Position numbers and translations under genes: made by a program. DNA of 61,325 nt, filler included. It is 4 parts of 4 records of this genome, joined end to end, with 100 filler letters (N's around TTAATTAATTAA, not from the genome) between each part and the next. Parts side by side here need not be neighbours in the genome. Positions count along the whole stretch, not along the records: positions 25,315 to 51,627 come from DRR723986_4975; 3 more parts are not named here. One strand, given 5' to 3'. A model generated the notes under the pieces. It saw nothing but the letters and a program-made list of their open reading frames with translations, ran no database searches and was not told the DNA's origin. Shown one piece after another: positions 25,315 to 48,532 of this stretch; position 1 is the first letter of the stretch; each line of letters begins with the position of its first letter.

Positions 25315-25316
25315 AA

Positions 25317-29614: not shown

Positions 29615-29646
29615 TTGACTCTGTAGCAAGGTCCAAGGTGTAGGCT
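29615..29646 (+). promoter_or_regulatory. MerR-family promoter/operator (ZntR/CadR-like, 20-bp spacer)
   Basis: TTGACT-CTGTAGCAAGGTCCAAGGTG-TAGGCT. The ATG lies 6 nt after the -10. Confidence 0.72.
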
Positions 29647-29652
29647 CGCCAA

Positions 29653-30381
29653 ATGAAACAAACAGCTAATACAAATGAGGGCCCGAAACAGGACTATGTT
29701 CCGGCCCTTGGATTCGCCTGGGCAACCAGGTTATACGACAGCGCAATTCGTATATCCATGCGTGAGGGTCTGCTGCGCAAAAGGACGGTTGCGTGCGTCA
29801 AGCAAGCAAATCCATCTGAGGTTCTTGAGGCAGGATGTGGTACAGGGAGCTTGACCCTTGCTTTGGCAAGAGGACTTCCCGGCGCAAATATCACGGGTAT
29901 TGACATCGATCCTCAAGCCCTCAAAGTAGCACAGGAAAAACTTGCCGGTGCTGACACCGTCAAGCTGGTTGCAGCGAACCTTGTTAATTTGACGGATGTG
30001 GCAGGATTGTCAGAAAATCGATTTGATCATGTTGTTTCGAGCTTGGTTTTGCATCATTTAACAACCAGCCAAAAACATATTGTGCTGAAGAACCTGCGGG
30101 CTCTTTTGAATAAAGATGGCAAATTGACCATTGTGGATTGGGGACCGCCTGTCGGTATTGTTCAATATCTCGGCTTTTGGCTGGTAAGACTGCTAGACGG
30201 CTTGGAGGTGACAAGGGCCAACCGTGAAGGCAGGTTGCCATCACTATTGTCGGGGACTGGTTTTGCGATTGATGACGTCAAGCCGCTTCACCAAACGGTG
30301 CTAGGCACCGTCTGGTTATATCAAGCTCGTCGCAGCCCAGAAGGCTCGACCAATCAAAATATAACACTGGGGGACATTTAA
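29653..30381 (+). CDS. Class I SAM-dependent methyltransferase
   Basis: VLEAGCGTG, GIDID, FDHVVSSLVLHHL, L...GKLTIVDW. Confidence 0.9.
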   Translation: MKQTANTNEGPKQDYVPALGFAWATRLYDSAIRISMREGLLRKRTVACVKQANPSEVLEAGCGTGSLTLALARGLPGANITGIDIDPQALKVAQEKLAGADTVKLVAANLVNLTDVAGLSENRFDHVVSSLVLHHLTTSQKHIVLKNLRALLNKDGKLTIVDWGPPVGIVQYLGFWLVRLLDGLEVTRANREGRLPSLLSGTGFAIDDVKPLHQTVLGTVWLYQARRSPEGSTNQNITLGDI

Positions 30382-31391
30382 TGATCGAAATTATTCCAAA
30401 CTGGCATCCAATCTTGGTTCATTTCACAGTTGCGTTGTTGTTGACGGCGACGGCGCTTCTGACGTGGTCATTGGTTCGGGGGCGCATATCTGCTGATCAA
30501 ACCACGGTAGCCTCTGGCCGGCTTGTCTTGTGGATTGGTCTTGTTGCCGCGGTTCTGACTGTTGTAGCGGGTCTTCAGGCCTATTACAGCGTGGGGCATG
30601 ACGGCCCGTCGCACGCGGCGATGACCGATCACAGAAACTGGGGTTTTGGTGCCCTCGCAGCTTTCCTTGTTGCCGGTGTATTGAGCTGGACCCGGCGAAA
30701 TTCTATCCTGTCGGTGCGTGATGTTGTTCTTTTGCTTGCCTCAAGCAGCATTTTGCTTGTCACCTCCTACAAGGGTGGTGAACTTGTCTATCGTTACGGG
30801 CTCGGCGTTCAATCATTGCCAGCGGTTACGGGCGACGGTCACGATCATGATCACGGTGATGGAGCACCACAAGAGCACGATAATGACGCTGCAACAGAGG
30901 ATGATTGCGGTGACGGTGTAGCTCAAGATCATGACGATGCTGGTGCCAAAGAACATGACCACGGCGACGTTAAAGAGGGCAAAGATGCTGACGAAAAAAA
31001 GGGCCATGACCATCCGGACGCTGTTCGGAGTGACCCCGGGCTAGTTGCTGACGCACTCTATACGGCGCTGCGTGAAGGCGATGAGGCCGCGGTTGAGAAA
31101 ATCCTCGCCGAGGATGTATTGATTCTGGAGGGTGGTCACGCGCAAACCAGCAGAGCTGACTATATGGGCGGCCATATGAAATCGGACATGGCATTTCTAC
31201 CTAATGTGAATAGCGAGACTCTAGACCGCAAGGTTAACCAGGCGGGCGATTTGGCCTGGGTGATCACCCACTCTCGTACCCAGGGAAGCTACCGGGACAA
31301 GGAAATTGATGAGTTGTCCCGCGAGATGCTGGTGATGAAGCATGATGGCCATAACTGGCGAGTAACGCTTATCCATTGGGGTGAGAAGTGA
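30381..31391 (+). CDS. DUF2231 membrane domain + His/Asp-rich linker + NTF2/SnoaL-like domain fusion
   Basis: IIPNWHPILVHF, H..M..H, GGELVYRYGLGV; repeated HDH/HDD linker; C-terminal ILEGG...Y...H...D, WRVTLIHW. Confidence 0.78.
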   Translation: MIEIIPNWHPILVHFTVALLLTATALLTWSLVRGRISADQTTVASGRLVLWIGLVAAVLTVVAGLQAYYSVGHDGPSHAAMTDHRNWGFGALAAFLVAGVLSWTRRNSILSVRDVVLLLASSSILLVTSYKGGELVYRYGLGVQSLPAVTGDGHDHDHGDGAPQEHDNDAATEDDCGDGVAQDHDDAGAKEHDHGDVKEGKDADEKKGHDHPDAVRSDPGLVADALYTALREGDEAAVEKILAEDVLILEGGHAQTSRADYMGGHMKSDMAFLPNVNSETLDRKVNQAGDLAWVITHSRTQGSYRDKEIDELSREMLVMKHDGHNWRVTLIHWGEK

Positions 31392-31467: not shown

Positions 31468-31499
31468 GAAAATCAGAAAAATCAAAAAAGGTGAGACAC

Positions 31500-31919
31500 A
31501 TGAAACCGATGACGATTGGAAAACTTGCCAAAGCGACAGGCGTTAGCGCAGAGACCATCAGATACTATGAGCGCTTCGGTTTCCTGCCCTCACCTGACCG
31601 CTTGGAATCCGGATACCGCGTATATGGAAGTGATAGTATTCAACGGGTCCGCTTCATTAAGGAAGCGCAGGCGCTGGGGTTCACATTGGCCGAAGTGAGT
31701 GACCTGATTGGCCTTACGGCCGACGAGCACGCCGACTGCGCCCAGGTCAATGAGAAGGCGACCCAAAAACTTCAAGAGATCAATAAGAAGATCAAGGCAC
31801 TAAAAAAAATGCGAGGCGCGCTTAAAATACTGTCACAGCGGTGCCCCGCCGACGAGCAACCACTAAGTGAATGCAGTATTGTTAATCATTTATATGATGT
31901 TGGAGAGGTTGCTATTTAA
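31500..31919 (+). CDS. MerR-family metal-responsive regulator (paralog 1)
   Basis: TIGKLAK.TGVS.ETIRYYER.G, GYRVY, LGFTL.E; Cys in ADCAQV and CPADEQPLSEC. Confidence 0.93.
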   Translation: MKPMTIGKLAKATGVSAETIRYYERFGFLPSPDRLESGYRVYGSDSIQRVRFIKEAQALGFTLAEVSDLIGLTADEHADCAQVNEKATQKLQEINKKIKALKKMRGALKILSQRCPADEQPLSECSIVNHLYDVGEVAI

Positions 31920-32773: not shown

Positions 32774-33190
32774 CTACATTTCCCGCTCGCCGTATAGGTG
32801 GTTGATAATGCTGCATTCACTTAGTGGTTGGTCATCGGCCGGACAGTACTGCGCCAACACCGTGAGGTTTCGTTTGATTTTGCGCAACAATTTCAGTTTT
32901 TCATTGATCTGTTTGAGTTTGGCTTGCGCCGTCTCGTTCATACGGGCACAATCTGCGACGGGGTCTTCTGTTATCGACAGCAGCTCCTTGGTTTCTCGCA
33001 GAGTAAAACCAAGAGTTTGGGCATTTTTGATGAACGTGAGTTGCAACAGGCTTTCTTGACCATACACCCGGTATCCGGACGAAAGTCGACCCGGCTTGGG
33101 AAGGATGCCCCGGCGCTCATAATAGCGGATAGTTTCAACGCTGACACCGGTGGCGTCGGCGAGCTTTCCTATGGTCAATTGAACTGTCAT
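32774..33190 (-). CDS. MerR-family metal-responsive regulator (paralog 2)
   Basis: TIGKLA..TGVSVETIRYYERRG; ADCARM and CPADDQPLSEC. Confidence 0.93.
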   Translation of the reverse strand: MTVQLTIGKLADATGVSVETIRYYERRGILPKPGRLSSGYRVYGQESLLQLTFIKNAQTLGFTLRETKELLSITEDPVADCARMNETAQAKLKQINEKLKLLRKIKRNLTVLAQYCPADDQPLSECSIINHLYGEREM

Positions 33191-35742: not shown

Positions 35743-35773
35743 AGCCTAAAGGTTATAGCTAGTGGAAGGTCAA
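35743..35773 (-). promoter_or_regulatory. CueR-type promoter of copA (19-bp spacer)
   Basis: Reverse strand TTGACC-TTCCACTAGCTATAACCTT-TAGGCT. Confidence 0.78.
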
Positions 35774-35883: not shown

Positions 35884-36099
35884 ATGAAAAATAGACTTGG
35901 GTTTTTCCAGTCTAGGATTGGATTTGTTTTCAGTGTATTTCTGGCGGTGGCTGCGCTCATGCTGCTGTTCGAACATAAGGCACACATCAATCTAGGAGGA
36001 ATCTTGCCATTGCTCCTGCTGGTTGGCTTATGTGTCGGGATGCATTTCTTCATGCATCACGGCCATTCCGATCATGACCATTCAGACCGGGATCATTGA
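35884..36099 (+). CDS. DUF2933-family small membrane protein
   Basis: Two TM segments, EHKAH, LCVGMHFFMHHGH His-rich tail. Confidence 0.8.
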   Translation: MKNRLGFFQSRIGFVFSVFLAVAALMLLFEHKAHINLGGILPLLLLVGLCVGMHFFMHHGHSDHDHSDRDH

Positions 36100-36100
36100 T

Positions 36101-36769
36101 ATGGAACATTCATCATATGGTCTCTGGGCGTTGGTTGTTCTCAACTCCGCAATCTTTATATTTTTTGCTTTTAGTTTTACAAAGCCAAAAACCAAGACGG
36201 ATTGGCGATCTTTTGGTGTTTTCAGCGCTTTCATCGTCGCACTCTTTACAGAAATGTATGGGATTCCGTTGACTATCTATTTCCTATCGGGATGGCTCCA
36301 GAGCAATTATCCCGAAATTGACTGGTTAGCCCACGATTCTGGCCACTTGTTGGAAATGATGTTTGGTTGGAAATCGAACCCTCATTTTGGGCCATTCCAC
36401 ATTCTAAGCATGTTCTTCATTGGTGGTGGCTTTTGGTTGCTGGCTTCAGCATGGCGCATACTTTATGCCGCTCAGCAGTCGGGAACACTAGCCATGTCCG
36501 GACCTTATGCTCGTGTGCGACATCCTCAATATGTAGCCTTCATTTTGATCATGTTTGGGTTTTTGCTCCAGTGGCCGACCATACTTACACTTGCTATGTT
36601 TCCGGTTCTCGTGATCGTATACTGGCGGCTTGCTTTAAGCGAGGAACTACAGGCTATAAGAGATTTCGGCCAAGTGTTCACGGACTATAGGGCAAATGTC
36701 CCGCGTTTCATTCCGACACTGAAATCAACTGGTCAACCGAACCTTGGAAACACGAATGAACGCCTATAG
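36101..36769 (+). CDS. Isoprenylcysteine carboxyl methyltransferase/PEMT-family membrane protein
   Basis: YGLW.LVV.NS..F..FAFSF.KP, ALFTEMYG.PLTIY, GPYARVRHPQY, EE, VPRFIP. Confidence 0.88.
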   Translation: MEHSSYGLWALVVLNSAIFIFFAFSFTKPKTKTDWRSFGVFSAFIVALFTEMYGIPLTIYFLSGWLQSNYPEIDWLAHDSGHLLEMMFGWKSNPHFGPFHILSMFFIGGGFWLLASAWRILYAAQQSGTLAMSGPYARVRHPQYVAFILIMFGFLLQWPTILTLAMFPVLVIVYWRLALSEELQAIRDFGQVFTDYRANVPRFIPTLKSTGQPNLGNTNERL

Positions 36770-36803: not shown

Positions 36804-37550
36804 ATGACGTACAAAAAAGAGCTACGTACACTCCAGACTTATCTGGTACAGTTTCAACGGCATTTGATTGCTCACGACCACCAGGTCGTTGTGATATTTG
36901 AAGGTCGGGATGCGAGCGGTAAAGACGGTGTTATCAAACGCATTACTGAACATTTAAGTCCTCGAGAAACTCGGGTTGTTGCGCTGCCTGTCCCCAGCGA
37001 TAGAGATCGCCGATCGTGGTATTTTCAACGATACGTCGATCAATTGCCTGCCGCGCAGGAAATGGTTCTGTTTAACCGCAGTTGGTACAATCGGGCCGGT
37101 GTCGAGCGCGTTATGGGCTTTTGCTCTGACGCAGAATATGCCGCTTTCATTGAAGCTGTACCTGGCTTTGAGAAAATGCTGACAAGTTCGGGCATGCAAA
37201 TTCTCAAATACTATCTGGACATCTCACGCAGAGAACAGGAACGTCGACTGAAAGACCGAGCGAATAACCCATTAAAACAATGGAAAACCAGCCCAATCGA
37301 TGCGCAAGCACTGGAAAAATGGGTCGATTATAGCAAGGCCAGAGACGATATGCTGGCAAGCACACATTCTGACCATGCCCCTTGGATCATTGTGGACGCT
37401 GATGATAAAAAATCGGCGAGACTTAACATCATTCGGGATTTACTTGGGCGGGTGGACTGCCCGGAGCGGGACATTCATTGGCAACAGCTAGATCGCTCAA
37501 TAATACGGATCTATGACGCTGAACAATCCGGAAGCTTCCTCCATTACTAA
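36804..37550 (+). CDS. ppk2: Polyphosphate kinase 2
   Basis: FEGRDASGKDG.IKR, WYFQRY, FNRSWYNRAGVERVMGFC, PLKQWK.SP.D. Confidence 0.93.
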   Translation: MTYKKELRTLQTYLVQFQRHLIAHDHQVVVIFEGRDASGKDGVIKRITEHLSPRETRVVALPVPSDRDRRSWYFQRYVDQLPAAQEMVLFNRSWYNRAGVERVMGFCSDAEYAAFIEAVPGFEKMLTSSGMQILKYYLDISRREQERRLKDRANNPLKQWKTSPIDAQALEKWVDYSKARDDMLASTHSDHAPWIIVDADDKKSARLNIIRDLLGRVDCPERDIHWQQLDRSIIRIYDAEQSGSFLHY

Positions 37551-37780: not shown

Positions 37781-37885
37781 AGTTGATGCTGGCTATGTGT
37801 TTATCGTTATGAAGCTGACGGCATCCTGTGAAACATTTACATATCAAGGTACTAATCAATTTCGAGAGTGTATCTTTTTTACCTA

Positions 37886-37916
37886 TTGACCCTGTACCGT
37901 GGTCAAGGGTTATTAT
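37886..37916 (+). promoter_or_regulatory. MerR-family promoter/operator (19-bp spacer) for the leader-cusCBA operon
   Basis: TTGACC-CTGTACCGTGGTCAAGGGT-TATTAT. The ATG lies 7 nt after the -10. Confidence 0.78.
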
Positions 37917-37923
37917 TCACCTT

Positions 37924-38334
37924 ATGCGATTCGCTACGAACATTGTTACACGGTTAATAGCCCTTCTCGCTTTAGGCGTGATTTTGGTGGCGCCTATGGC
38001 GTCCGCTCTGGACACACATGATTGCTGTCCAGAGACCTATCAAGGCGGCATGAGGGCACAGTCTCATGACCTGATGGCACACTATAGCCAAGGGAAGATG
38101 ATCAGCCACCAGACAGCGTCTGATCATGCGAGTATTGACCCGTCTTCCCCCGAAAAACTGTGTGATATTTCCTGCTGTGCAAATGTCGCCACTTGCGCCG
38201 TTATCTCATTAAACGCGCCTGATATGGCCGGATGGACTATACGCCCACAAGCGTTTAGGCCAATCGACGAAACGGCTTCCTCCCGGCATGCGAACCTAAA
38301 CACTCCCCCTCCCCGTATCTCTCTGATCGTTTAA
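37924..38334 (+). CDS. Cys/His/Met-rich exported leader protein with C-terminal PPP (CutF/CruR/CopL-like)
   Basis: Signal peptide, HDCC, CDISCCANVATC, ends NTPPPRISLIV. First gene of the cus operon. Confidence 0.72.
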   Translation: MRFATNIVTRLIALLALGVILVAPMASALDTHDCCPETYQGGMRAQSHDLMAHYSQGKMISHQTASDHASIDPSSPEKLCDISCCANVATCAVISLNAPDMAGWTIRPQAFRPIDETASSRHANLNTPPPRISLIV

Positions 38335-38417
38335 GGCTCGGTTTAACCCGAAGCTGAAGGCGTAATTGGCTGGAAATGCCAATTGCGCGCAGACTTTATG
38401 ATCTTTGAGGTAACAAT

Positions 38418-39713
38418 ATGTACAATCTGACTACGGTCTCAACAGCCGTTATTATAGCATTTACTTTTACGGTAAACGTTGGTGCTCTACAATCCAGTCC
38501 CCTCGGTATAGCGCAGGAAAAGCCAGCCGTCTCAGGTGAGCTATCTCTTCAGGAAGCCATTAAACTGGCGCTTTCGTCTGAGGATCCTTACCTGATGGAG
38601 CCGGGCGAACAGGCTGCGGCCTTTGATGATCGTGCGGTTTCAGATTCGCAACTGCCAGACCCCAAACTGAGAATGACATTTGCAAACTGGCCGACCAATA
38701 GCTTCAGTTATACGCAAGAAGCAATGACCCAGCTTCAGGTGGGGGTCAGTCAGGCTTTCCCGAAAGGGGATACGCTCCAGCATCGGCGGTCAAAGCGAAA
38801 AGCGCAGGCGACCAGCGAACGGTTCCGTCAGGAACTGCGTCAGCGGGAAATCATCCTGGATACGCGCCTTAACTGGCTCGACCTTTACTATTGGACCAAG
38901 GCGGAAGCCAAGGTGGGCGAAAGCCGAAAGGCAGTCGCAGAGCTTATAGAAGTTATTCAGGCTATTTTCGCAACAGGACGCGAGACAAGCCAGGACATCC
39001 TGAGAGCCGAGCTTGAACTCAGCCTTCTGGACGATCGCTTGGTGGAAATCGGCAGGAAGGCATCGATTTCCCGCGCGAAACTGGCACGCCGTATCGGTGA
39101 GGCAGCGGCACGTCGCCCCATTGCGATAACACCGCCTGGTCTGGTTCATCCCTCGGATGTGACGGCTCTTATTGATATTTTACCCCAACATCCTGCGGCC
39201 AAAATGTTCTCGGCGCGCGTTGAAGTGGCAGGCAAAGATGTCGATATCGCCGGTGAGCAATATAAACCCGGATGGACCGTTAATGTGGGGTACGGAGCGC
39301 GCGGTGCCGAGCGCGCTGATTTTGCCTCAGTCGGCGTAGTTATGGATGTGCCCCTTTTCACAGCAAAACGGCAAGACAGAGAGGTTTCTGCCGCAAAGCG
39401 GTCTCGTCAGGCATCCCGCCTGTCGCTGGACGGTGTTTTGCTGGATTTGAGAAGGAAGCTGCAGACAACCTATGCCGACTGGACGCGGCTTCAGGAGCGG
39501 ATTTCCCTCTATCAGTCGGTTGTCCTCAAGCGGGCAAAGGAAACCACAGAAGCATCGCTCACATCCTACCAGAGCGGTGTTACCGATTTTGCAGAACTGG
39601 TTAGAGCGCGGCTGGCAGAGCTTGATGCAGAGCTTAGTTTGATAAGGCTCCAGTCGGACCGATTGAAGGCTCAGGCCCAACTTCTATTCCTTGAAGGTGA
39701 AGACGATGCGTAA
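38418..39713 (+). CDS. TolC-family outer membrane efflux protein (CusC-like)
   Basis: Signal peptide, QLPDPKL, MTQ..VGVSQ.FP, Y.SG..DFAELVRA. Upstream of MFP and RND genes. Confidence 0.88.
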   Translation: MYNLTTVSTAVIIAFTFTVNVGALQSSPLGIAQEKPAVSGELSLQEAIKLALSSEDPYLMEPGEQAAAFDDRAVSDSQLPDPKLRMTFANWPTNSFSYTQEAMTQLQVGVSQAFPKGDTLQHRRSKRKAQATSERFRQELRQREIILDTRLNWLDLYYWTKAEAKVGESRKAVAELIEVIQAIFATGRETSQDILRAELELSLLDDRLVEIGRKASISRAKLARRIGEAAARRPIAITPPGLVHPSDVTALIDILPQHPAAKMFSARVEVAGKDVDIAGEQYKPGWTVNVGYGARGAERADFASVGVVMDVPLFTAKRQDREVSAAKRSRQASRLSLDGVLLDLRRKLQTTYADWTRLQERISLYQSVVLKRAKETTEASLTSYQSGVTDFAELVRARLAELDAELSLIRLQSDRLKAQAQLLFLEGEDDA

Positions 39714-41193
39714 AACAATTTTAACAGTAGCAGCGACGCTGACAATCGGAGCTGGTCTTGGTTACGGCGCAAGCATGCTGGGCCAGGCACCTGAAACTGG
39801 TGCCCCGGCGCAAAACGACGAAAAAGAGGTGCTTTACTGGATAGCGCCGATGGACCCTAATTATAGGCGCGACGAGCCTGGGAAATCACCCATGGGGATG
39901 GAGTTAATCCCTATTTACGCCGGAGACGAAGCTGGCGGCGATGATCCCAATGCACTGAAAATAAGTGGCGCAGTGGTCAATAACATCGGGGTGAGAACTG
40001 ATGTTGCGCTGGCTTCAGATCTGTCCCGTGAGATCGATACCATTGGGTTCATCACGTTCGACGAAGACAAGACGTCACATGTGCATGTACGCACAGCTGG
40101 CTGGGTTGAAAAACTATACAGGAAAGCGGTTGGCGAGGTTGTTCAAAAGGGCGAAGTGATATTCGAACTCTATTCACAGGAATTGGTAAATGCCCAGATA
40201 GAGTTTCTCCAGTCTGTCAGGCTCGACCAGAAAGGTTTTGCAAGCGCAGCACAAGAACGGCTTAAGGCTCTCGGAATGACCGAACGCCAAATCGCTACAG
40301 TTCAAAAAAGCGGTGAAGTGAAACAGCGTATCGAGGTTCTTGCTCCTCAAGATGGTGTTATTATAGCCTTGGAGATTGGTGAGGGCATGCATGTTACACC
40401 GGGCAAAACGGTGTTCTCTCTAGCAGATTTGTCATCCGTCTGGATCAAGGTTGACGTCTTCGAAGGCCAGTCCGACTGGGTAAGCGAAGGCCAGCAAGCA
40501 ACTATGACACTGCCTTTTCTCCCCGGTGAAACCTGGAACGGCACAGTAGATTATGTGTATCCCATCGTTGACCCAATGAGCCGAACAGTACAGGCGCGCT
40601 TGGCGTTTTCCAACCCCGACGGCCGGTTGAAGCCAAATATGTACGGTGAGATCAGTATTGCGGCATCTCCGGTGAAGGATGTCGTTTCCATTCCGCGCGA
40701 GGCGCTTATTCGCACCGGCAAAACTGATCGGGTTGTACTGGCACTAGGCGACGGCAAGTACCGACCTGCCGAAGTTGTTGCTGGCATGGAAAGTGGTGAC
40801 CGGGTGGAAATCAAAGCTGGCCTGTCAGCCGGCGAGGTGATCGTAACATCCGGTCAGTTTCTCATCGACTCCGAAGCCAGCATCAATAGTGCTTTTCTGC
40901 GTATGCTGGAAGCGGGTGCCAAGCAAGATCATGCCGGGCACGACATGGCTGAAATGGCTGACGAAATAGAGGTTCATCACGGCATGGGCACAGTTAACTC
41001 GGTGTCGGATGATGGCACCGTCAACCTTACCCATGACCCCATCTCTTCGCTTGGCTGGCCCGAAATGACGATGGGTTTTTCCGCCGACCCTGAGGTTGAT
41101 TTGTCATCTTTCGCACCCGGTGATCGCATGCATTTTGAGCTGACGAAAAGTGCTGATGGCCCCTTTGTTATCACCAAAGCGACAAAAATGTAG
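39706..41193 (+). CDS. cusB: CusB-type periplasmic adaptor with C-terminal CusF-like domain
   Basis: YWIAPMDP...PGKSPMGMEL (three-Met site), LKPNMYG, SGQFLIDSEAS; C-terminal HDPI..LGWPEMTMGF. Confidence 0.9.
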   Translation: MRKTILTVAATLTIGAGLGYGASMLGQAPETGAPAQNDEKEVLYWIAPMDPNYRRDEPGKSPMGMELIPIYAGDEAGGDDPNALKISGAVVNNIGVRTDVALASDLSREIDTIGFITFDEDKTSHVHVRTAGWVEKLYRKAVGEVVQKGEVIFELYSQELVNAQIEFLQSVRLDQKGFASAAQERLKALGMTERQIATVQKSGEVKQRIEVLAPQDGVIIALEIGEGMHVTPGKTVFSLADLSSVWIKVDVFEGQSDWVSEGQQATMTLPFLPGETWNGTVDYVYPIVDPMSRTVQARLAFSNPDGRLKPNMYGEISIAASPVKDVVSIPREALIRTGKTDRVVLALGDGKYRPAEVVAGMESGDRVEIKAGLSAGEVIVTSGQFLIDSEASINSAFLRMLEAGAKQDHAGHDMAEMADEIEVHHGMGTVNSVSDDGTVNLTHDPISSLGWPEMTMGFSADPEVDLSSFAPGDRMHFELTKSADGPFVITKATKM

Positions 41194-41209: not shown

Positions 41210-44200
41210 ATGATTGCAAATATTATACGATGGTCGATAGAGAACCGCTTTTTGGTGGTGATCCTGACCTTGCTATTTACCGGCTGGGGCGCTTATTCGC
41301 TCTCGAAAACACCTCTGGATGCCATCCCTGACCTCTCGGATGTGCAGGTGATTATCAAGACAACATACCCGGGCCAAGCGCCGCAGGTGGTTGAGGACCA
41401 GGTAACATATCCGCTAACAACGGCGATGCTGTCAGTCCCGGGCGCCACAACGGTCAGGGGCTACTCCTTCTTTAACGATTCATATGTCTACATCATTTTT
41501 GAAGACGGCACGGACCTCTATTGGGCACGTTCACGGGTTCTGGAATATCTGAGCCAGGTTGCCCCCACCCTGCCACAGGAAGCCCGATCAGCCCTAGGGC
41601 CGGACGCTACCGGGGTTGGATGGGTGTATCAATATGCCCTAGTAGACCGTACTGGTGGGCATGACCTTTCGCAGCTCCGCAGCATTCAGGACTGGTTTCT
41701 GAAATTTGAACTGCAAACGGTAGAGGGCGTATCCGAGGTGGCCACCATCGGCGGTATGGTCAAACAGTATCAGGTTGTCGTTAATCCCAACCGGCTGCGG
41801 GCATACGACATAACCCTGCCGATGGTGAAGATGGCCATTCAGCGCGGCAACCAGGAAACCGGTGGCCGGGTCATTGAAATGGCAGAGGCAGAATATATGG
41901 TTCGCGCGTCCGGCTATATCGATGAGCTGTCGGACCTTGAATCCATTCCTGTCGGCCTGACCAAAACCGGCACGCCCATTCTTCTGAAAGATATTGCCGA
42001 ACTGCGCACAGGTCCGGAACTCAGACGTGGTATCGGCGAACTGAACGGCGAAGGAGAAGCTGTCGGCGGTGTGATTATCATGCGCTGGGGCGAAAACGCC
42101 CTGAGCACGATCGAGAAGGTGAAAGAAAAACTTGAAATCCTCAAACGCAGCCTGCCTGAAGGTGTGGAAGTCGTAGAAACCTACGACCGCTCATCGCTGA
42201 TTAAGCGGGCGGTCACCACATTGGCTGAAAAGTTGATCGAGGAATTTTTGGTCGTCGCCCTCGTCTGTGCGGTCTTTCTGTTTCATCTAAGATCATCACT
42301 TGTGGTTGTCCTCAGTTTACCGGTCGGCATTCTGGCGGCGTTCATTGTTATGAATAGCCAGGGTGTTAACGCCAACATCATGTCATTGGGCGGGATCGCC
42401 ATTGCCATTGGTGCCATGGTCGATGCCACCATTGTCATGATAGAAAATTATCACAAGCATATGGAGGAAGATGATGTCACCGATGAAAACAGGTGGCAGA
42501 TTGTGACCAAAACCGCGGTTGAGGTCGGGCCGCCGCTTTTCTTCTCTTTGCTGATTATTACCCTTAGTTTCGTTCCCATTTTTGCGCTTGAAGCACAAGA
42601 GGGGCGACTGTTTCACCCGCTTGCCTTCACCAAAACATTCGCTATGGCAGCAGCGGCAGGTCTATCGATCACCATCGTGCCGGTTTTGATGGGGTATTTT
42701 ATTCGCGGCAAAATTTTGCCCGAACACAAGAACCCGATTAACCGGGGCCTAATGGCCGCTTACAAACCCTTCGTTGGAATAGTTCTGAAGTTCCCGAAGA
42801 GCATGCTCCTGGTCGCATTACTGATTATGGCCAGCGCCGCCTATCCCTTGTCACAAATCGGTGGTGAATTCATGCCGGACCTGGACGAAGGGGACCTCCT
42901 GTATATGCCCAGTGCCTATCCGGCGATCTCTGCTGGCAAAATGGCGCAGGTTGTCCAGCAGACTAACAAATTGATCAAGACCATACCGGAAGTCGAGGCC
43001 GTATACGGCAAGGCTGGACGCGCTGACACCGCAACCGACCCGGCACCGCTCACGATGATCGAGACAACGATCAAGCTTAAGCCGCAAAGCGAATGGCGCG
43101 AAGGTATGACGACAGAGCAATTGAAAATGGAACTCAATCGCCTGGTGCAAGTCCCAAGCCTGACCAACGTCTGGATTATGCCAATTAAGAATCGCATCGA
43201 TATGCTGGCGACCGGCATTAAAACCCCGGTGGGAATTAAGGTCGCCGGGCCTGACCTGCAGGTGATCAGTGAAGTCGGTCAGGAGATTGAACGCGTGATA
43301 CGGGAAGTGCCGGGCACAGCGTCGGTGTATGCCGAGCGGGTAACGGGCGGGCGGTATATTAATGCCGATATCGACCGGGTGAAAGCAGCGCGGTACGGCC
43401 TTAATATTGCGGACGTACAGGACGTGATACGAACCGCAATTGGCGGCATGACCGTGACAGAAAGCATCGAAGGCCTGGAGCGCTATCCGGTTAACCTCAG
43501 GTATCCGAGAGAGTTTCGGGATTCGCTCGACCGGTTGCGGGCGCTTCCTGTCGTCACACCAAATGGAGAGCATATCCCACTTGGCCAGATCGCCGATATC
43601 AGTGTCAGTGGTGGACCGGGTGTGATCCGCAGTGAAAATGCCCGCCTCAACGGCTGGATCTATGTCGATATTGCCGGAGTTGATATTGGCAGTTATGTTG
43701 CGCGCGCCAAGCAGACAGTGACTGATAATATCGACCTGCCCCCGGGCTACTCAATCGCCTGGTCGGGCCAGTATGAATATATGGAACGCGCCAAGGCGAA
43801 ACTGAGTGTGGTGGTGCCGGTGACACTCGTCATCATCTTGCTGTTACTCTATATCAACTTCAAAAACCTGACCGCCGTTTTCATTATCATGGGCACGCTG
43901 CCACTATCACTTGTTGGCGGCATCTGGCTTCTGTACGCCCTGGATTATAATCTGTCTGTTGCGGTCGGAGTTGGGTTCATTGCGCTTGCGGGCGTTGCGG
44001 TCGAGATAGGCGTTCTTATGATCGTCTATCTCAATCAGGCATGGGACAAAATCACAGCGACGGCTGCCAAGGAAAATCGGAACCTTGCAAAAGCAGACCT
44101 GGTGCAGGCGGTGATCAACGGCGCGCTGATGCGCGTGCGCCCGATCATGATGACCGTAGCTGTGATCATCGCAGGTTTGCTGCCGATTATGCTTGGTACC

Positions 44201-44365
44201 GGCACAGGCTCCGAAGTTATGCGCCGCATCGCCGCCCCGATGGTTGGCGGCATGATCAGCGCAACCATTCTGACGCTTCTGGTAATCCCGGCAGCTTATC
44301 TTCTCTGGAAAAGTCGCGAAACAACAGAGGATTCCCCGGCGCTTGCCCACGAAACAGACACTTAA
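41210..44365 (+). CDS. cusA: CusA/SilA heavy-metal efflux RND transporter
   Basis: DAIPDLSDVQVI, LGPDATGVGWVYQY, GAMVDA, EFMPDLDEGDLLYMP, DPAPLTMIET, NRIDML, GSEVMRRIAAPMVGG. Confidence 0.95.
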   Translation: MIANIIRWSIENRFLVVILTLLFTGWGAYSLSKTPLDAIPDLSDVQVIIKTTYPGQAPQVVEDQVTYPLTTAMLSVPGATTVRGYSFFNDSYVYIIFEDGTDLYWARSRVLEYLSQVAPTLPQEARSALGPDATGVGWVYQYALVDRTGGHDLSQLRSIQDWFLKFELQTVEGVSEVATIGGMVKQYQVVVNPNRLRAYDITLPMVKMAIQRGNQETGGRVIEMAEAEYMVRASGYIDELSDLESIPVGLTKTGTPILLKDIAELRTGPELRRGIGELNGEGEAVGGVIIMRWGENALSTIEKVKEKLEILKRSLPEGVEVVETYDRSSLIKRAVTTLAEKLIEEFLVVALVCAVFLFHLRSSLVVVLSLPVGILAAFIVMNSQGVNANIMSLGGIAIAIGAMVDATIVMIENYHKHMEEDDVTDENRWQIVTKTAVEVGPPLFFSLLIITLSFVPIFALEAQEGRLFHPLAFTKTFAMAAAAGLSITIVPVLMGYFIRGKILPEHKNPINRGLMAAYKPFVGIVLKFPKSMLLVALLIMASAAYPLSQIGGEFMPDLDEGDLLYMPSAYPAISAGKMAQVVQQTNKLIKTIPEVEAVYGKAGRADTATDPAPLTMIETTIKLKPQSEWREGMTTEQLKMELNRLVQVPSLTNVWIMPIKNRIDMLATGIKTPVGIKVAGPDLQVISEVGQEIERVIREVPGTASVYAERVTGGRYINADIDRVKAARYGLNIADVQDVIRTAIGGMTVTESIEGLERYPVNLRYPREFRDSLDRLRALPVVTPNGEHIPLGQIADISVSGGPGVIRSENARLNGWIYVDIAGVDIGSYVARAKQTVTDNIDLPPGYSIAWSGQYEYMERAKAKLSVVVPVTLVIILLLLYINFKNLTAVFIIMGTLPLSLVGGIWLLYALDYNLSVAVGVGFIALAGVAVEIGVLMIVYLNQAWDKITATAAKENRNLAKADLVQAVINGALMRVRPIMMTVAVIIAGLLPIMLGTGTGSEVMRRIAAPMVGGMISATILTLLVIPAAYLLWKSRETTEDSPALAHETDT

Positions 44366-44377
44366 CAGGAGAAAGTC

Positions 44378-45394
44378 ATGAACAGCTTCATCATTCCAAA
44401 TTGGCACCCGTTTTTGGTGCACTTCACTATCGCTCTTGTCGTTACATCGAGTGTTTTCTTTGTCCTGACGAAACTGTTGCCCAAGCGAGCTGATACTTTT
44501 GCGATTGTTGCGAAATGGACCCTGTGGTCGGCGGCATTTGTTACGGTGTTAACCCTGCTTGCAGGGTTTGCAGCCTTTAACTCAGTAGCCCACGATGACA
44601 CGGCGCATATCGTGATGAAAACGCACCGTCTATGGGCGCTATTTGCAGCAGCCGCGCTTTTCATCGTGGCAATATGGAGTTATCGGACGAAGGGCGCTCC
44701 ATTAGTGTTGGTGGTAGGTAGTGTCGTAGTAGCGGGTCTTGTCGGGACCACCGGCTATCTGGGTGCGGAGCTTGTTTACCGCCATGGTCTGGGGGTTATG
44801 CGCCTGCCGGACAATACCGGCGAGGGCCACAGTCATGCTGGCGGGAGCGGACATAGCCATAATGACGGCGCCGTTTCAACCGGTGACCATCATACTGCCG
44901 TACCCCCTACAAAACATGAACAGAGGGGGGCAGATGGTCACGGGCACAGCAACGCGACCAGTCAACATGACCACGGCGAAGACTGCGGCGATATCAAACA
45001 TGCTAACGGTGAAGGGTCGGCTTTAGCGTTTGCGAAGAGCTTTCAAGTTGCATTGAATGGTGGTGATTTCGATACGGTCGCGGGGAGCTTTGCCGCTGAC
45101 GCCGTTATTTTTGAGAACGGCGTGAGAGAAGTATCGCTGGAAGACTACCTCGAGCATCACCTCAAGCCGGAAATGCCGATGCTAAAAGCGGCTAACAGGC
45201 AAGTCCTCAAACAAGATGTTGTCGAAACGAATAGTATAGCAATCGTTTCGACCGCCTCGATGCTCTCTATCAAAAGTAAGGGAAAGCAACATGACTTTTA
45301 CAGCGCCGAAACACTTACCCTCCAAACTCAGAAGGGTGAATGGAAGGTGATCCACGTGCACTGGTCCTCTCGTCCAGTCGTAAAAAGGAACTAA
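44378..45394 (+). CDS. DUF2231 + His-rich linker + NTF2/SnoaL-like fusion (paralog of 30381-31391)
   Basis: IIPNWHPFLVHF, HD..AH..M..H, GAELVYRHGLGV, GHSH repeats, IFENG...Y..HH, WKVIHVHWSS. Confidence 0.78.
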   Translation: MNSFIIPNWHPFLVHFTIALVVTSSVFFVLTKLLPKRADTFAIVAKWTLWSAAFVTVLTLLAGFAAFNSVAHDDTAHIVMKTHRLWALFAAAALFIVAIWSYRTKGAPLVLVVGSVVVAGLVGTTGYLGAELVYRHGLGVMRLPDNTGEGHSHAGGSGHSHNDGAVSTGDHHTAVPPTKHEQRGADGHGHSNATSQHDHGEDCGDIKHANGEGSALAFAKSFQVALNGGDFDTVAGSFAADAVIFENGVREVSLEDYLEHHLKPEMPMLKAANRQVLKQDVVETNSIAIVSTASMLSIKSKGKQHDFYSAETLTLQTQKGEWKVIHVHWSSRPVVKRN

Positions 45395-45429
45395 CCCCAC
45401 GCTTTAACACCAAACAGAAGGGAAATATC

Positions 45430-45771
45430 ATGAAGAAGCTTCCACAAATTGCCACGGTGTTGGCGATAGTTGTTGGTTTAAATGCGCCAGTTGTCTCGGC
45501 TGCAGACGAAAACCAACATTCGCATCAGGCTGAAAAAAAAGAAGTGATGATTCACGCAGTGGTCAATAGCATCAATTCAACTGACCGCATGGTAAATATA
45601 AGCCATGGGCCTATCAAGGATCTGAGTTGGCCCGCGATGACAATGGATATGAAAGTTGCACAAAACGTAGACATGGACGTGTTTCACAAGGGTGAAGAGA
45701 TTATGGTTTCGTTATCCCGGGATGGAAAAGGTATATTTGAAATTGTCAAAGTGATGGTTCATGGTCACTAG
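45430..45771 (+). CDS. cusF: CusF-family periplasmic Cu/Ag chaperone
   Basis: Signal peptide; ISHGPI..LSWPAMTMD (His-Trp-Met-Met site). Confidence 0.88.
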   Translation: MKKLPQIATVLAIVVGLNAPVVSAADENQHSHQAEKKEVMIHAVVNSINSTDRMVNISHGPIKDLSWPAMTMDMKVAQNVDMDVFHKGEEIMVSLSRDGKGIFEIVKVMVHGH

Positions 45772-45841
45772 GCTTTATCATTTCTTTTTAATTTATCGTT
45801 GTAATGTATTATAGTTGAACCAAGCGTAATGTAGGTTGAGA

Positions 45842-46276
45842 ATGAATAGACTTGGAAAATGGGGGCGTTTGGTAGCTCTGGTCAACATCATTGTATGGAC
45901 CAGTTCGCCTGTAATGTCGCTTTCCAACCCAGAGCGGTTTCACCCGCAGAGTAGTCTCGAGGTTTTAGCTGACGGGTTGTTGGTGCTTCAATCGATTGAA
46001 TCCGTTGACTTAGAGAAGCTACCGGATTTGCGCTCTGAGACGTTCAATACATTTCTTAGCTTACATGTCCAGATACCATCGCCGGATGACAACACGCACC
46101 TTCACGGCATATTGGATGGATGTTGCGGGTCCGGCGGATTGGTTTGTGATGTAGGCCTGATCCTGAGGTCGACAATTGTGCCGCAATCCTCAGTGACACA
46201 AATACATGGTCTGAGAGCAGTGCACAATCTTGCGAGCCTCGCCCTTTCTCCTTTATATCACCCTCCGAAACCTTAG
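45842..46276 (+). CDS. Cys-containing exported leader protein ending in HPPKP, upstream of a TonB-dependent receptor (DUF2946/CruR-like architecture)
   Basis: N-terminal hydrophobic segment, HLHG...GCCG.....C, C-terminal SPLYHPPKP*. Confidence 0.62.
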   Translation: MNRLGKWGRLVALVNIIVWTSSPVMSLSNPERFHPQSSLEVLADGLLVLQSIESVDLEKLPDLRSETFNTFLSLHVQIPSPDDNTHLHGILDGCCGSGGLVCDVGLILRSTIVPQSSVTQIHGLRAVHNLASLALSPLYHPPKP

Positions 46277-46426
46277 AACTTCCAGCCATTTGATCAGTTG
46301 TCGCTTGTTATAGAGAAGCTGCTCTTTTGGCATAACACACTCAAGGAAATATTGGTTTAAAGCTCACTGAGTCCCTTAAGATTCAGGCAGAGCACATTGG
46401 GGCTAAACGGTCCCGTGGAGGAAGTT

Positions 46427-48532
46427 ATGACTAGAATATTCAAACCAACACTGTCTCTTTTTGGAGCAACTTGCGCGTCGGCGCTGCTGGCGGGCAATGC
46501 ATGGTCCCAAGAGGCTGATACAGATGGCAGTCTACTCGAAGAAGTAATTATTACAGCCCAAAAGCGCGAGTCCAGTCTTCAGGATACGCCTATTAGCGTA
46601 TCTGCTTTGACGGGGGAGATGCTGGAGAACATCGGCATCCGCACGATAGAAGACTTCACTTTCTTTGTACCCGGAATAACCGTCACCAACGATTCAATGG
46701 CGATCGTAAATATTCGTGGCATCGGGACATCCGCCTTCGGCGTGGCTACTGACCCGAGTTCGACTGTTCACATAGACGGTATTTATCAGCCTCGTCCCAC
46801 CACAGGCTACCAGGATATGTTTGACGTTGAGCGCTTGGAATTGTTGCGAGGCCCGCAAGGCGTTTTGTTTGGTCGAAATTCAACCGGGGGAACGCTTAAT
46901 ATCATATCCAAAGCGCCAACCGACGAATTTGAGGGTGCCGTCGGTGTAACGTTCGGGAACTTTAACAAGCGCACGTTCAGCGGCACCGTTTCGGGTCCGT
47001 TGGCTGACAGTGTGCGCGGACGTGTTACTCTGCTCAAGAATGATCGAGATGGTATTTATACCGACATCGTTTCCGGAGACGAATATCAGGATCAGGACAA
47101 CATTGCCGGGCGCGCAACCATTGCTATAGACTTGGCAGAAGGCTTTGAGTTGATACTGCGCGGCGATTTTAGCAGAGAGCGCGAAACTGGTTTTCCTGCA
47201 ATACGAACTTTTTATCCACAAGAGTTTGTTGATGCGGGTGCCACGATTCCCAGCCGCGACCGCGACCTCGCTTTTGATACTACGCCGGTCAGTGATCTGG
47301 ACGTCTGGGGAGTTTCTTCAACTGCCATATGGCACGGAGAGGATGTTACGTTCAAATCTATTACGTCATACCGTGAGAGCGATATTGAACAGGTAATCGA
47401 CGCGGACGCCACCGACTTGTTTCTCTTCGATATTGGATTTCGGGAAAATTCTCGATCATTCACTCAGGAACTACAGCTTACTAACAATGATTCGTCCCGA
47501 CTTGAGTGGATCGTCGGTGCTTTCTTTCTGAATGAAGATGGGGACGGCGGCATCGACTTGTTGTTTCAGGACCCGAAAATCAACATTTCCGAGGCCAATA
47601 TCACCAATGCCTATGCGTTGTTTGGTCAAGGCACCTATAATGTGACTGACAGGCTTCGTGCGACTTTCGGCGTTCGTTACAGCTACGAGAAAAAGAGCTA
47701 TAATTTCTCGACAGATGTAAACGGAGCGAACGTCGACGGCGGTTCGCCGTCAGCCGATTGGAAGGCTTGGACACCCCGGTTCGCGGTAGATTATGACATC
47801 AACGATGATGTTTTGGCCTATGTATCGGCAACGCGCGGTTTCAAATCGGGTGGTTTCCAGCTCGGCGATGCCGGCGCTTTTGATCCAGAATTTCTGTGGA
47901 GTTATGAGGCTGGCTTGAAGTCGACACTTTTGGATAAGAGATTACGCGCAAATATTGGCCTGTTCCAATATGATTACACCAATTTGCAGGTGGTAGAGTT
48001 CGTCGGTGGTGTTGCAACGACGAGCAACGCCGGTGAGGCGACGGTGCGTGGTATCGAAGGTGAGTTTGTTGCCAGGGTTGCCGACGATTTCGACATAAAC
48101 GCAACGGTAGCTTATCTGGACGCTACATATGACGTATTCTTCGAGGGGGGCGAGGATTTTTCCGGAAACCGGCTCGCCAACTCTCCCAATTGGGCTTATT
48201 CCTTCGGCGCTCAGTATACTACGGAGGTTGGTTCCTCGGGTCACCTGACCATCAGGGGCGATTATGCGTGGCGTGATAACGTGGATTTCAAGCGAGACAA
48301 TCTACCGCAATTTCGTGCGGATACATACTCGCTGCTGAACGCGCGTATCTCCTTTACGTCCATTGACGAACTTTGGGAAGTGTCGCTTTACGGTCAAAAC
48401 CTGACTGACAATCGTTATGCCACTTATATTACCCTTGGCAGAAACGTTGGCGGTGCGGCTGACCCGAACTTGCCAGTGACCGTTTTTGGTGAACCGCGTC
48501 AATATGGGATTCAACTGAAAAGGAACTTCTAG
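46427..48532 (+). CDS. TonB-dependent outer membrane receptor
   Basis: Signal peptide, LEEVIITAQKR TonB box, plug DVERLELLRGPQGVLFGRNSTGG, C-terminal PRQYGIQLKRNF. ATG 46427 has a GGAGGA RBS. Confidence 0.93.
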   Translation: MTRIFKPTLSLFGATCASALLAGNAWSQEADTDGSLLEEVIITAQKRESSLQDTPISVSALTGEMLENIGIRTIEDFTFFVPGITVTNDSMAIVNIRGIGTSAFGVATDPSSTVHIDGIYQPRPTTGYQDMFDVERLELLRGPQGVLFGRNSTGGTLNIISKAPTDEFEGAVGVTFGNFNKRTFSGTVSGPLADSVRGRVTLLKNDRDGIYTDIVSGDEYQDQDNIAGRATIAIDLAEGFELILRGDFSRERETGFPAIRTFYPQEFVDAGATIPSRDRDLAFDTTPVSDLDVWGVSSTAIWHGEDVTFKSITSYRESDIEQVIDADATDLFLFDIGFRENSRSFTQELQLTNNDSSRLEWIVGAFFLNEDGDGGIDLLFQDPKINISEANITNAYALFGQGTYNVTDRLRATFGVRYSYEKKSYNFSTDVNGANVDGGSPSADWKAWTPRFAVDYDINDDVLAYVSATRGFKSGGFQLGDAGAFDPEFLWSYEAGLKSTLLDKRLRANIGLFQYDYTNLQVVEFVGGVATTSNAGEATVRGIEGEFVARVADDFDINATVAYLDATYDVFFEGGEDFSGNRLANSPNWAYSFGAQYTTEVGSSGHLTIRGDYAWRDNVDFKRDNLPQFRADTYSLLNARISFTSIDELWEVSLYGQNLTDNRYATYITLGRNVGGAADPNLPVTVFGEPRQYGIQLKRNF

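Follow-up and report, generated by a model that had tools for sequence, protein, structure and literature searches.

What is the role of a small Cys-rich open reading frame (ORF) that lies between a MerR-type promoter and the first gene of a cusCBA-type metal efflux operon? The locus is found in a DNA window of 61,325 nucleotides, which is the whole stretch analysed here and is made of four parts of one genome joined end to end by 100 filler letters, and it falls in the part that comes from DRR723986_4975 (positions 25,315 to 51,627). The original prediction, made from the letters of the window, took this ORF for an exported metal-sensing leader, whose ribosome would pause at three consecutive prolines (PPP) near the C-terminus and uncover the downstream cusC-like gene's Shine-Dalgarno (SD) sequence. 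Comparison with relatives gives good support for such a leader, which appears to be an instance of the recently described regulatory class of CutF from Rhodobacter capsulatus and not a new kind of regulator. The stalling interpretation is borne out in part: the conserved ORF with its Cys motifs, the PPP[R/K] ending, a fixed spacing and the pairing of the leader tail with the SD agree with it, whereas the Cys that had been taken as its ruler (C91) and the claims of novelty do not hold, and a third helix is weak.

Four features may be new: a narrow HxCC/CxxxCC/TPPPR subfamily that lies below the threshold of the Pfam DUF2946 model, an exact ruler of 43 residues, an anti-SD with co-variation inside the last codons of the leader itself, and a MerR-type promoter that abuts the ATG, probably with a leaderless start. 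CutF-type 'transmembrane' ribosome stalling has to our knowledge been shown so far in one organism and for one target, which is a multicopper oxidase. The locus is a compact test case, in which the logic of CutF would control a resistance-nodulation-division (RND) metal pump, and the ruler, the anti-SD within the footprint of the paused ribosome and the conserved promoter next to the start are its testable features. Leaders of this kind escape Pfam-based annotation, so surveys built only on DUF2946 would undercount them, and gene callers make them too long at the 5' end, by reading through the promoter of the leader itself.

Motifs and spacing of the leader family

As predicted, the first ORF after the MerR promoter encodes an exported-type protein rich in Cys, His and Met (Table 1). 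By inspection its N-terminus resembles a signal peptide, with R2 and R10, a hydrophobic segment at residues 11-24 and A-S-A at 26-28, and by hand count the mature part has six Cys, six His and four Met. The Cys residues form the groups H32-x-C34-C35 and C80-x3-C84-C85, with C91 in addition, and the PPP occupies residues 128-130 (codons 38305-38313), followed by R-I-S-L-I-V and the stop. The protein matches no Pfam or NCBIfam family at threshold. In the ESM Atlas the model for this exact sequence shows little structure, with a predicted local distance difference test (pLDDT) score of 0.48 and a predicted template modelling (pTM) score of 0.18, and the Atlas clusters nearest to it by language-model features are labelled DUF2946 or CzcI, which is a lead only.

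As a query by itself, the leader protein has homologs at 13 places, with 25-100% identity, in 11 of the 61 related genomes searched; these 11 belong to one genus, and the 29 genomes from outside it gave none. A family profile matches 13 of the 32 genomes of the genus and, in a class-level search that scored up to 10 candidates per genome, one of 401 genomes, which is the nearest genome of the window; among the genomes covered, no member of the subfamily turned up beyond the genus. Among 1.84 billion representative proteins the profile matches 51 at E<=1e-3. A search for related loci that started from the single protein gave two. A 100% identical copy of the leader is present in a public record titled Kordiimonas aquimaris JCM 16665, an alphaproteobacterium.

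The 13 homologous places all have in common the signal peptide, the HxCC motif, a Cys cluster (mostly CxxxCC) and PPP[R/K] near the stop. In the 11-row alignment every row retains the hydrophobic core and a small-x-small site; M1, I7, C34, C35, C80, C85, S120 and P128-130 are invariant, and H32, C84, T127 and R131 are retained in at least 90% of the rows. The mean column identity is 40%, and the family alignments contain no conserved stretch of 7-10 columns. PPP[R/K] forms the C-terminus of 50 of the 53 family proteins, with 2-6 residues (R/K included, commonest 3 or 6) from PPP to the stop; of the other three, one is truncated and two are marginal matches.

The distance between a conserved Cys, which is C85 in the window, and the first Pro of PPP was counted in 42 proteins, those with HxCC as well as the terminal PPP. 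It is 43 residues in 37 of them, 42 in three and 44 in two, while the distance from the N-terminal CC to this same Cys varies from 34 to 63 residues. The original prediction had measured from C91, and its count of 36 residues between C91 and P128 is right, but C91 is not conserved among the relatives, and the ruler starts at C85. A linker of fixed length and free sequence, which ends in polyproline near the stop, suits a nascent-chain sensor and not a folded chaperone. The ratio of nonsynonymous to synonymous substitution rates (dN/dS) of the leader is 0.29 against an 82%-identical homolog, compared with 0.08 for the OEP gene, so the leader gene appears to be under purifying but relaxed selection.

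Homologous leaders, given here by the L numbers of their loci, precede more than one kind of gene. An OEP gene lies 3' of the leader by Pfam in seven cases (window, L003, L005, L007, L039, L041 and L043) and by eye only in five (L002, L004, L011, L040 and L042). Other leaders precede a multicopper oxidase with a twin-arginine (Tat) signal (L008), a TonB-dependent receptor (L013), small lipoproteins of no family (L010 and L012) and, by eye, a DUF2231-like gene (L009). These downstream genes are all of copper-related classes, and the classes overlap those found next to CutF-like genes, namely OEP, TonB-like proteins and cuproenzymes. One type of leader before differing copper-related genes fits a portable cis-regulator, not a pump subunit.

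One genome has a second copy of the leader (L042/L045, G006:C1 about 1469783-1470171), which is split over two frames, with profile positions 1-46 in one and 41-132 in the other, and either carries a frameshift or owes the split to an error in sequencing. This copy retains TPPPR and the downstream OEP gene, and its tail does not occlude the SD in the model.

Pairing of the leader tail with the cusC Shine-Dalgarno sequence

Folding of 38290-38425 returns most of the structure that had been proposed for the junction of leader and cusC. The helix 38316-38321/38407-38412, which takes in the SD GAGG of cusC, is formed, and so are the helix proposed at 38325-38329/38399-38403, which extends to 38325-38330/38398-38403, and the enclosed internal hairpin. 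The third proposed helix (38332-38336/38394-38398) is weak, with 3 bp in the minimum free energy (MFE) structure and none in the centroid. The MFE is -37.0 kcal/mol, compared with -28.3 kcal/mol (standard deviation 3.7) for shuffled sequences, five of 200 of which fold as stably as the native one. The SD costs 6.21 kcal/mol to open in the native sequence and on average 3.61 kcal/mol once the 18 nt past the PPP codons are shuffled, and two of 60 shuffles reach the native value.

In the window, L002, L003, L005, L007, L013 and L039 the MFE folds join the codons that directly follow PPPR to the next gene's SD by base pairing, and both the tail and the SD sequences differ among these loci. The permutation test of this pairing compared 21-nt tails with SD regions in 11 lineages, each with one representative; the close relatives L002 and L042 were omitted, as were L008, L009, L011 and L041, which have long or incomplete intergenic regions. 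The summed duplex energy of the cognate tails and SD regions is -100.8 kcal/mol, compared with -66.5 kcal/mol (standard deviation 7.3) for permuted ones, and one of 20,000 permutations was as low, a result that is somewhat inflated because the SD regions of the window and of L003 have a common origin. In six lineages the cost of opening the SD lies above that of tail-shuffled controls (window 2/60, L003 1/60, L005 4/60, L007 4/60, L013 0/60 and L039 0/60). Among homologs, where covariation had been put forward as a check, the pairing is seen in the window and five other lineages, with partners of differing sequence, and the other five of the 11 are without it.

A ribosome that pauses with its P-site on the Pro codons would cover the anti-SD, which is no more than about 15 nt away on the 3' side. 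When the nucleotides beneath a ribosome whose P-site holds the third Pro codon are kept unpaired in the model, opening the SD of the window takes 2.52 kcal/mol where it otherwise takes 6.21, and in all six pairing lineages the cost is lowered by 3-7 kcal/mol. The 83-nt intergenic region is 94% identical (78/83) to that of the 82%-identical relative, and the dS of the flanking genes is 0.31-0.37; this identity despite diverged synonymous sites argues that the RNA itself is constrained.

Promoter and start of the leader

MerR control in front of the leader, which was part of the original prediction, is consistent with a promoter layout conserved among relatives. The promoter contains an imperfect dyad (37889-37910), a pattern with two sites in the window where 0.13 are expected, and its -10 ends 7 nt upstream of the ATG. 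The layout TTGAC[C/A], 19 nt, TAnnnT, 7-9 nt and a start codon is found at 14 of 15 homologous loci, in a count where the choice of start codon in L043 is uncertain. Such a promoter leaves no room for a 5' untranslated region (UTR) with an SD, from which we infer that the leader mRNA is probably leaderless or nearly so. The built-in sigma-70 scan allows only spacers of 16-18 nt, so this promoter cannot be listed by it, and the built-in scan for intrinsic terminators found none.

A GTG at 37828, which would give a protein of 168 residues, was considered as the start and dropped, because the extension is an in-frame translation of the conserved promoter/operator. Gene callers carry several family ORFs upstream in frame through the promoter, which results in proteins of 152-171 residues. 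Public gene calls (P0003, P0004, P0006, P0008 and others) often begin 15-35 codons early and run in frame through the promoter/operator; the presumed cause is that no SD precedes the true ATG.

A second MerR-type promoter (29616-29655, + strand), whose dyad is related to that of the leader with three mismatches, likewise abuts an ATG. It heads a methyltransferase gene (29653-30381), a DUF2231/DUF4440 gene (30381-31391, + strand), which is a paralog of the one in the cus operon, and a MerR-family gene (31491-31919). The repeat of this layout suggests that leaderless starts may be a habit of the MerR-type regulon. The copA promoter (35743-35773, - strand) has TTGACC, 19 nt and TAGGCT. Its spacer sequence is unlike the one in front of the leader, and it is followed by an ordinary 5' UTR with a GGGAGG SD. 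Two MerR-family genes are present in the window (31491-31919, + strand, and 32774-33190, - strand), which together with the two types of operator suggests two regulators.

Comparison with known leaders

CutF, from the cutFOG locus, is a protein of 118 residues that has a Sec signal peptide, a C69xxxC73 motif and the C-terminus P109EPEGPPPRL118 (PMC8456105). Cu-induced production of CutO needs the Cys motif, the Pro motif and the signal peptide of CutF, its translation in cis and a stem-loop that shields the SD (PMC9973294; PMC8456105). The change of PPP to PAP abolishes Cu induction of CutO, and CutO is made independently of Cu when elongation factor P (EF-P) is missing; PPP is the functional element of CutF, which ends GPPPRL (bioRxiv 10.1101/2025.02.05.636593). 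CutF-like genes with Cys motifs are mostly upstream of Cu-homeostasis genes, most of their intergenic regions are shorter than 100 nt, and among their neighbours OEP genes (CusC/CzcC/SilC) are named first, followed by TonB-like and PCuAC genes (PMC9973294). The original prediction had presented the non-RAPP motif and the RND-pump context as departures; with PPP in CutF itself and OEP genes among the published neighbours, neither departs from the known class.

The window leader shares with CutF a small size (136 and 118 residues), a signal peptide of the Sec type, Cys shortly behind the cleavage site, a central CxxxC and PPPR followed by a few residues and the stop. The distance from the last Cys to PPP is also close, about 41 residues in CutF (C73-P114) and 43 here, and in both an RNA structure, modelled for the window, shields the SD of the next gene in a copper-detoxification operon of an alphaproteobacterium. 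The family member L008, like CutF, precedes a Tat multicopper oxidase. The two differ in that no sequence homology is demonstrable, CutF being compared by its published description, and in that the window leader has an extra Cys (CxxxCC) and HxCC, a TolC-like RND factor as downstream gene and an intergenic region of 83 nt, compared with 40 bp for CutF. The anti-SD is within the last leader codons in the window and in the intergenic stem-loop in CutF, and the MerR-type promoter of the window, a locus known from sequence alone, abuts the start. A weak bridge between them is the protein P0053, which ends GPPPRLL and matches the family profile with E 3.9e-4.

The leader falls within all the rule-based filters for CutF-like proteins of PMC9973294, which are a length below 150 residues (136), a signal peptide (by inspection), Cys motifs, PP among the last 15 residues (PPP at 128-130 of 136) and a same-strand neighbour at less than 1000 nt (83 nt). 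The CutF-like proteins that stand before OEP/CusC genes in this survey (list D; SilD and CusD nodes in the legend of Fig. 6) have the same class of neighbour as the window leader, while sections 10-12 of the survey contain neither an analysis of tail-SD pairing nor a promoter layout. We would group the leader with CutF by its way of working and by the published definition, which is an operational one, and leave its relatedness in sequence unproven. A literature search, which most subscription journals lay outside, brought up no experimental work on a CutF-like leader in front of cusCBA and no description of a leaderless MerR-driven leader.

CruR (Bp2923) of Bordetella pertussis has a CXXC motif, 45 intervening residues and RAPP, acts by Rho-dependent termination and is independent of its signal peptide and of EF-P (PMC9426467). 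Like CruR, the window leader is an exported-type protein of an upstream ORF that heads a copper-related operon, is predicted to be poorly structured and has a Cys motif at a conserved distance from a Pro-containing arrest motif near the stop. A Cys-to-arrest spacing that is constant within 1-2 residues, which is typical of the DUF2946 type, is found here too (43+-1 in 42/42). The window leader has CxxxCC and TPPPR where CruR has CXXC and RAPP, and the true DUF2946 genes of the related genomes end R[A/G]PP in 17 of 17 cases. The DUF2946 model matches three of 11 family members at E<=10 (best 0.025), and four of 10 peripheral members score 12.9-13.9 bits with it. CruR and DUF2946 are a different branch from the window leader.

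CzcI of Cupriavidus metallidurans is placed among the CutF-like proteins and has no C-terminal proline motif (PMC9973294). Like that of the window leader, its gene is small and lies immediately upstream of an RND operon, which for CzcI is of the czcCBA type, and the window leader differs in having the proline motif. The CzcI model (PF28244), whose presence in the Pfam copy used is unconfirmed, matches none of the 11 family members at E<=10. SecM, VemP, MifM and the RAPP-type leaders ApcA, ApdA and ApdP monitor the secretion machinery and lie upstream of sec or yidC genes (PMC10987492, PMC10951233). They share with the window leader an exported or membrane-targeted product and a C-terminal arrest that frees a downstream SD; they differ in their arrest sequences, and PPPR before an OEP gene places the window leader outside their class.

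Proposed mechanism and alternative explanations

We favour, with moderate confidence, a CutF-like leader for the cusCBA-type operon, in which a metal-prolonged pause at PPP during export would uncover the cusC SD on top of MerR-type transcription. A MerR-type activator would switch on the promoter, and the leader would be translated from a leaderless or nearly leaderless start. The signal peptide would drive co-translational export of the nascent chain, which would expose the thiols of HxCC and CxxxCC. When the ribosome is at T-P-P-P-R (codons 127-131), the last conserved Cys would be exactly 43 residues behind the peptidyl-transferase centre, and Cu(I) or Ag(I) on the Cys motifs would, by the precedent of CutF, prolong the intrinsic polyproline pause. 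The paused ribosome would cover 38316-38330, which is otherwise paired with the cusC SD region 38398-38412, and release of the SD would allow the translation of cusC and, with it, of the pump. The outcome would be two metal checks in series, one transcriptional and cytoplasmic, the other translational and periplasmic. Both the sign of the response and the identity of the metal are taken from CutF and from the Cus/CopA context.

Several observations weigh against this mechanism. Copper relieves the stalling of CruR (PMC9426467), so the sign of the response is unreadable from sequence, and in reporter fusions in E. coli the Pro motif of CutF alone is not a strong staller (PMC9973294). The leader misses the threshold of Pfam DUF2946 (PF11162), with 13.3 bits and E 0.14 where the gathering cut-off is 23.7, and an hhalign comparison of the family with 17 DUF2946 proteins gives a probability of 2%, with only the signal peptide aligned. 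The z-score of the fold is modest (-2.36), and the closest homolog, L002, has a weaker SD occlusion (3.44 kcal/mol). Five of the 11 lineages have no tail-dependent occlusion of the SD (L004 14/60, L010 50/60, L012 21/60, L040 20/60 and L043 38/60), and the intergenic regions of L008, L011 and L041 have 187-232 nt, so direct covering of the anti-SD cannot be general. A ribosome modelled at the leader stop gives an SD cost of 2.71 kcal/mol, compared with 2.52 kcal/mol on PPP, which means that the pairing alone cannot tell a regulated pause from plain coupling. RNA reads come from two runs of low share, which gave contigs of 196 nt and 151 nt only.

A wider reading joins these elements into a self-contained cassette, made of the MerR-type promoter, the leaderless arrest ORF and the long-range anti-SD, which could stand before any copper gene and act as an AND gate for cytoplasmic and for periplasmic or translocon metal. 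It takes in the 43-residue ruler and a second cassette, and we regard it as tentative and on balance doubtful. The ruler would place CxxxCC at the junction of the ribosome and SecYEG during the PPP pause, so metal would be sensed in or at the translocon and not by a chain already free in the periplasm. A leaderless start would couple the first ribosome to the point where the transcript begins, and the second type of cassette (45836-46276, described below) would serve the adjacent TonB receptor in the same way.

The alternative that survives best, although we hold it to be unlikely, is a periplasmic protein that is stable, binds metal and assists or regulates the pump, such as a CzcI-like protein or a CusF-like chaperone, with the SD pairing as ordinary translational coupling. 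A chaperone was also the first proposal for CutF (PMC8456105), and the leader is a real ORF under purifying selection whose product appears exported and is rich in Cys, His and Met; a CzcI-labelled cluster is among the nearest Pfam-bearing Atlas clusters, and in the model a ribosome that terminates opens up the SD about as much as one paused on PPP does. A folded chaperone gives no obvious role to the 43+-1 spacing up to a C-terminal PPP, however, and agrees poorly with the low conservation beyond the three motifs, the looser selection than on the OEP gene and the poor predicted structure. The leader moreover accompanies unrelated downstream genes and has no Pfam match to CzcI or CusF.

Control could instead be transcriptional as in CruR, where a ribosome paused at the Pro motif would shield a site at the leader's 3' end on which Rho loads, and release of the ribosome would let Rho terminate before cusC. 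The short and strongly structured intergenic region of the window disfavours Rho loading, the co-variation of tail and SD is specific to translational control, and the motif is the PPPR of CutF, not the RAPP of CruR, all of which makes this explanation improbable. It agrees with a stretch of C>G at 38230-38347 (C 0.35-0.37 and G 0.17-0.22 in 78-nt windows), comparable to the cruR bubble (PMC9426467), with the intergenic regions of 153-232 nt of some family members, with the position of one family member before a TonB receptor, like that of cruR, and with the lack of a detected intrinsic terminator. Rho protection and SD unmasking may coexist.

Chance, by which the ORF end, the PPP and the pairings would come from a pyrimidine-rich coding tail opposite a purine-rich SD, can draw on the natural complementarity of Pro, Ser and Leu codons to SD sequences, on the small z-score and on the five lineages that lack the pairing, but it is contradicted by the comparative data (PPP[R/K] in 50 of 53 proteins, a spacing of 42-44 in 42/42, cognate duplex energies reached by one of 20,000 permutations and a 94% conserved intergenic region) and is hardly credible.

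Table 1. Positions of the leader, its RNA elements and the genes of the cus operon in the window.
Feature	Position	Strand	Basis or remark
MerR-type promoter: -35 TTGACC (37886-91), 19-nt spacer, -10 TATTAT (37911-16)	37886-37916	+	Sequence and dyad pattern
Leader ORF, putative CutF-like exported Cys-rich peptide	37924-38334	+	136 residues; stop codon (38332-38334) included
Sec-type signal peptide, codons 1-28, predicted cleavage after A-S-A	37924-38007	+	By inspection
H-x-C-C motif, codons 32-35, directly past the signal peptide	38017-38028	+	Alignment conservation
C-x-x-x-C-C motif, codons 80-85, putative metal site	38161-38178	+	Alignment conservation and spacing
T-P-P-P-R, codons 127-131, putative arrest motif	38302-38316	+	Alignment conservation and family C-termini
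Anti-SD strand in the last leader codons (R131-V136)	38316-38330	+	MFE and centroid pairing
Enclosed intergenic 11-bp hairpin (38360-38370/38378-38388)	38360-38388	+	Fold
3' strand of the long-range helix, with the cusC SD GAGG (38407-38410)	38398-38412	+	Fold
TolC/CusC-like outer membrane factor, proposed regulated gene	38418-39713	+	Pfam OEP, E 2.1e-36
CusB-like adaptor with N-terminal HMBD and fused C-terminal CusF domain	39691-41193	+	HlyD_D23 6.9e-78, CusF_Ec 1.7e-22, HMBD 5.2e-08
CusA-like RND pump	41210-44365	+	Pfam ACR_tran, E 1.2e-235
DUF2231 membrane domain fused to DUF4440/SnoaL-like domain, within the cus operon	44378-45394	+	Pfam
Separate CusF gene, besides the CusF domain of the adaptor	45427-45771	+	Pfam

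Operon and neighbouring genes

The genes of the operon are listed in Table 1. The CusB-like adaptor also matches the NCBIfam CusB subfamily with 3.6e-68, which is below the cut-off of that model. Upstream, on the opposite strand, are a MerR-family gene and an ORF for a CopA-type ATPase, the latter recognised by its translation. In the stretch that separates copA from the leader there is an ORF of 71 residues (35884-36099, + strand) with hydrophobic segments and a His/Asp-rich C-terminus, which is followed by a PEMT/ICMT-like methyltransferase gene (36098-36769) and a PPK2 gene (36804-37550).

A second leader-like ORF

Upstream of the gene for a TonB-dependent receptor (46397-48532) there is a second leader-like ORF (45836-46276, + strand) of 146 residues with an uncertain TTG start, which matches no Pfam family. 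In its homologs, which occur in seven of the genus's 32 genomes, the hydrophobic N-terminus is retained, as is a CC..GG..C motif. By hand count in the window, L049 and L050, 38 residues separate this motif from a conserved PP[K/R], which is HPPK in the window and is followed by 1-9 residues and the stop. The ORF looks like another arrest leader of the CutF/CruR type, with a different motif and placed before a receptor. Among the loci inspected, hairpin-like repeats and a GGAGGAAA SD lie downstream of it.

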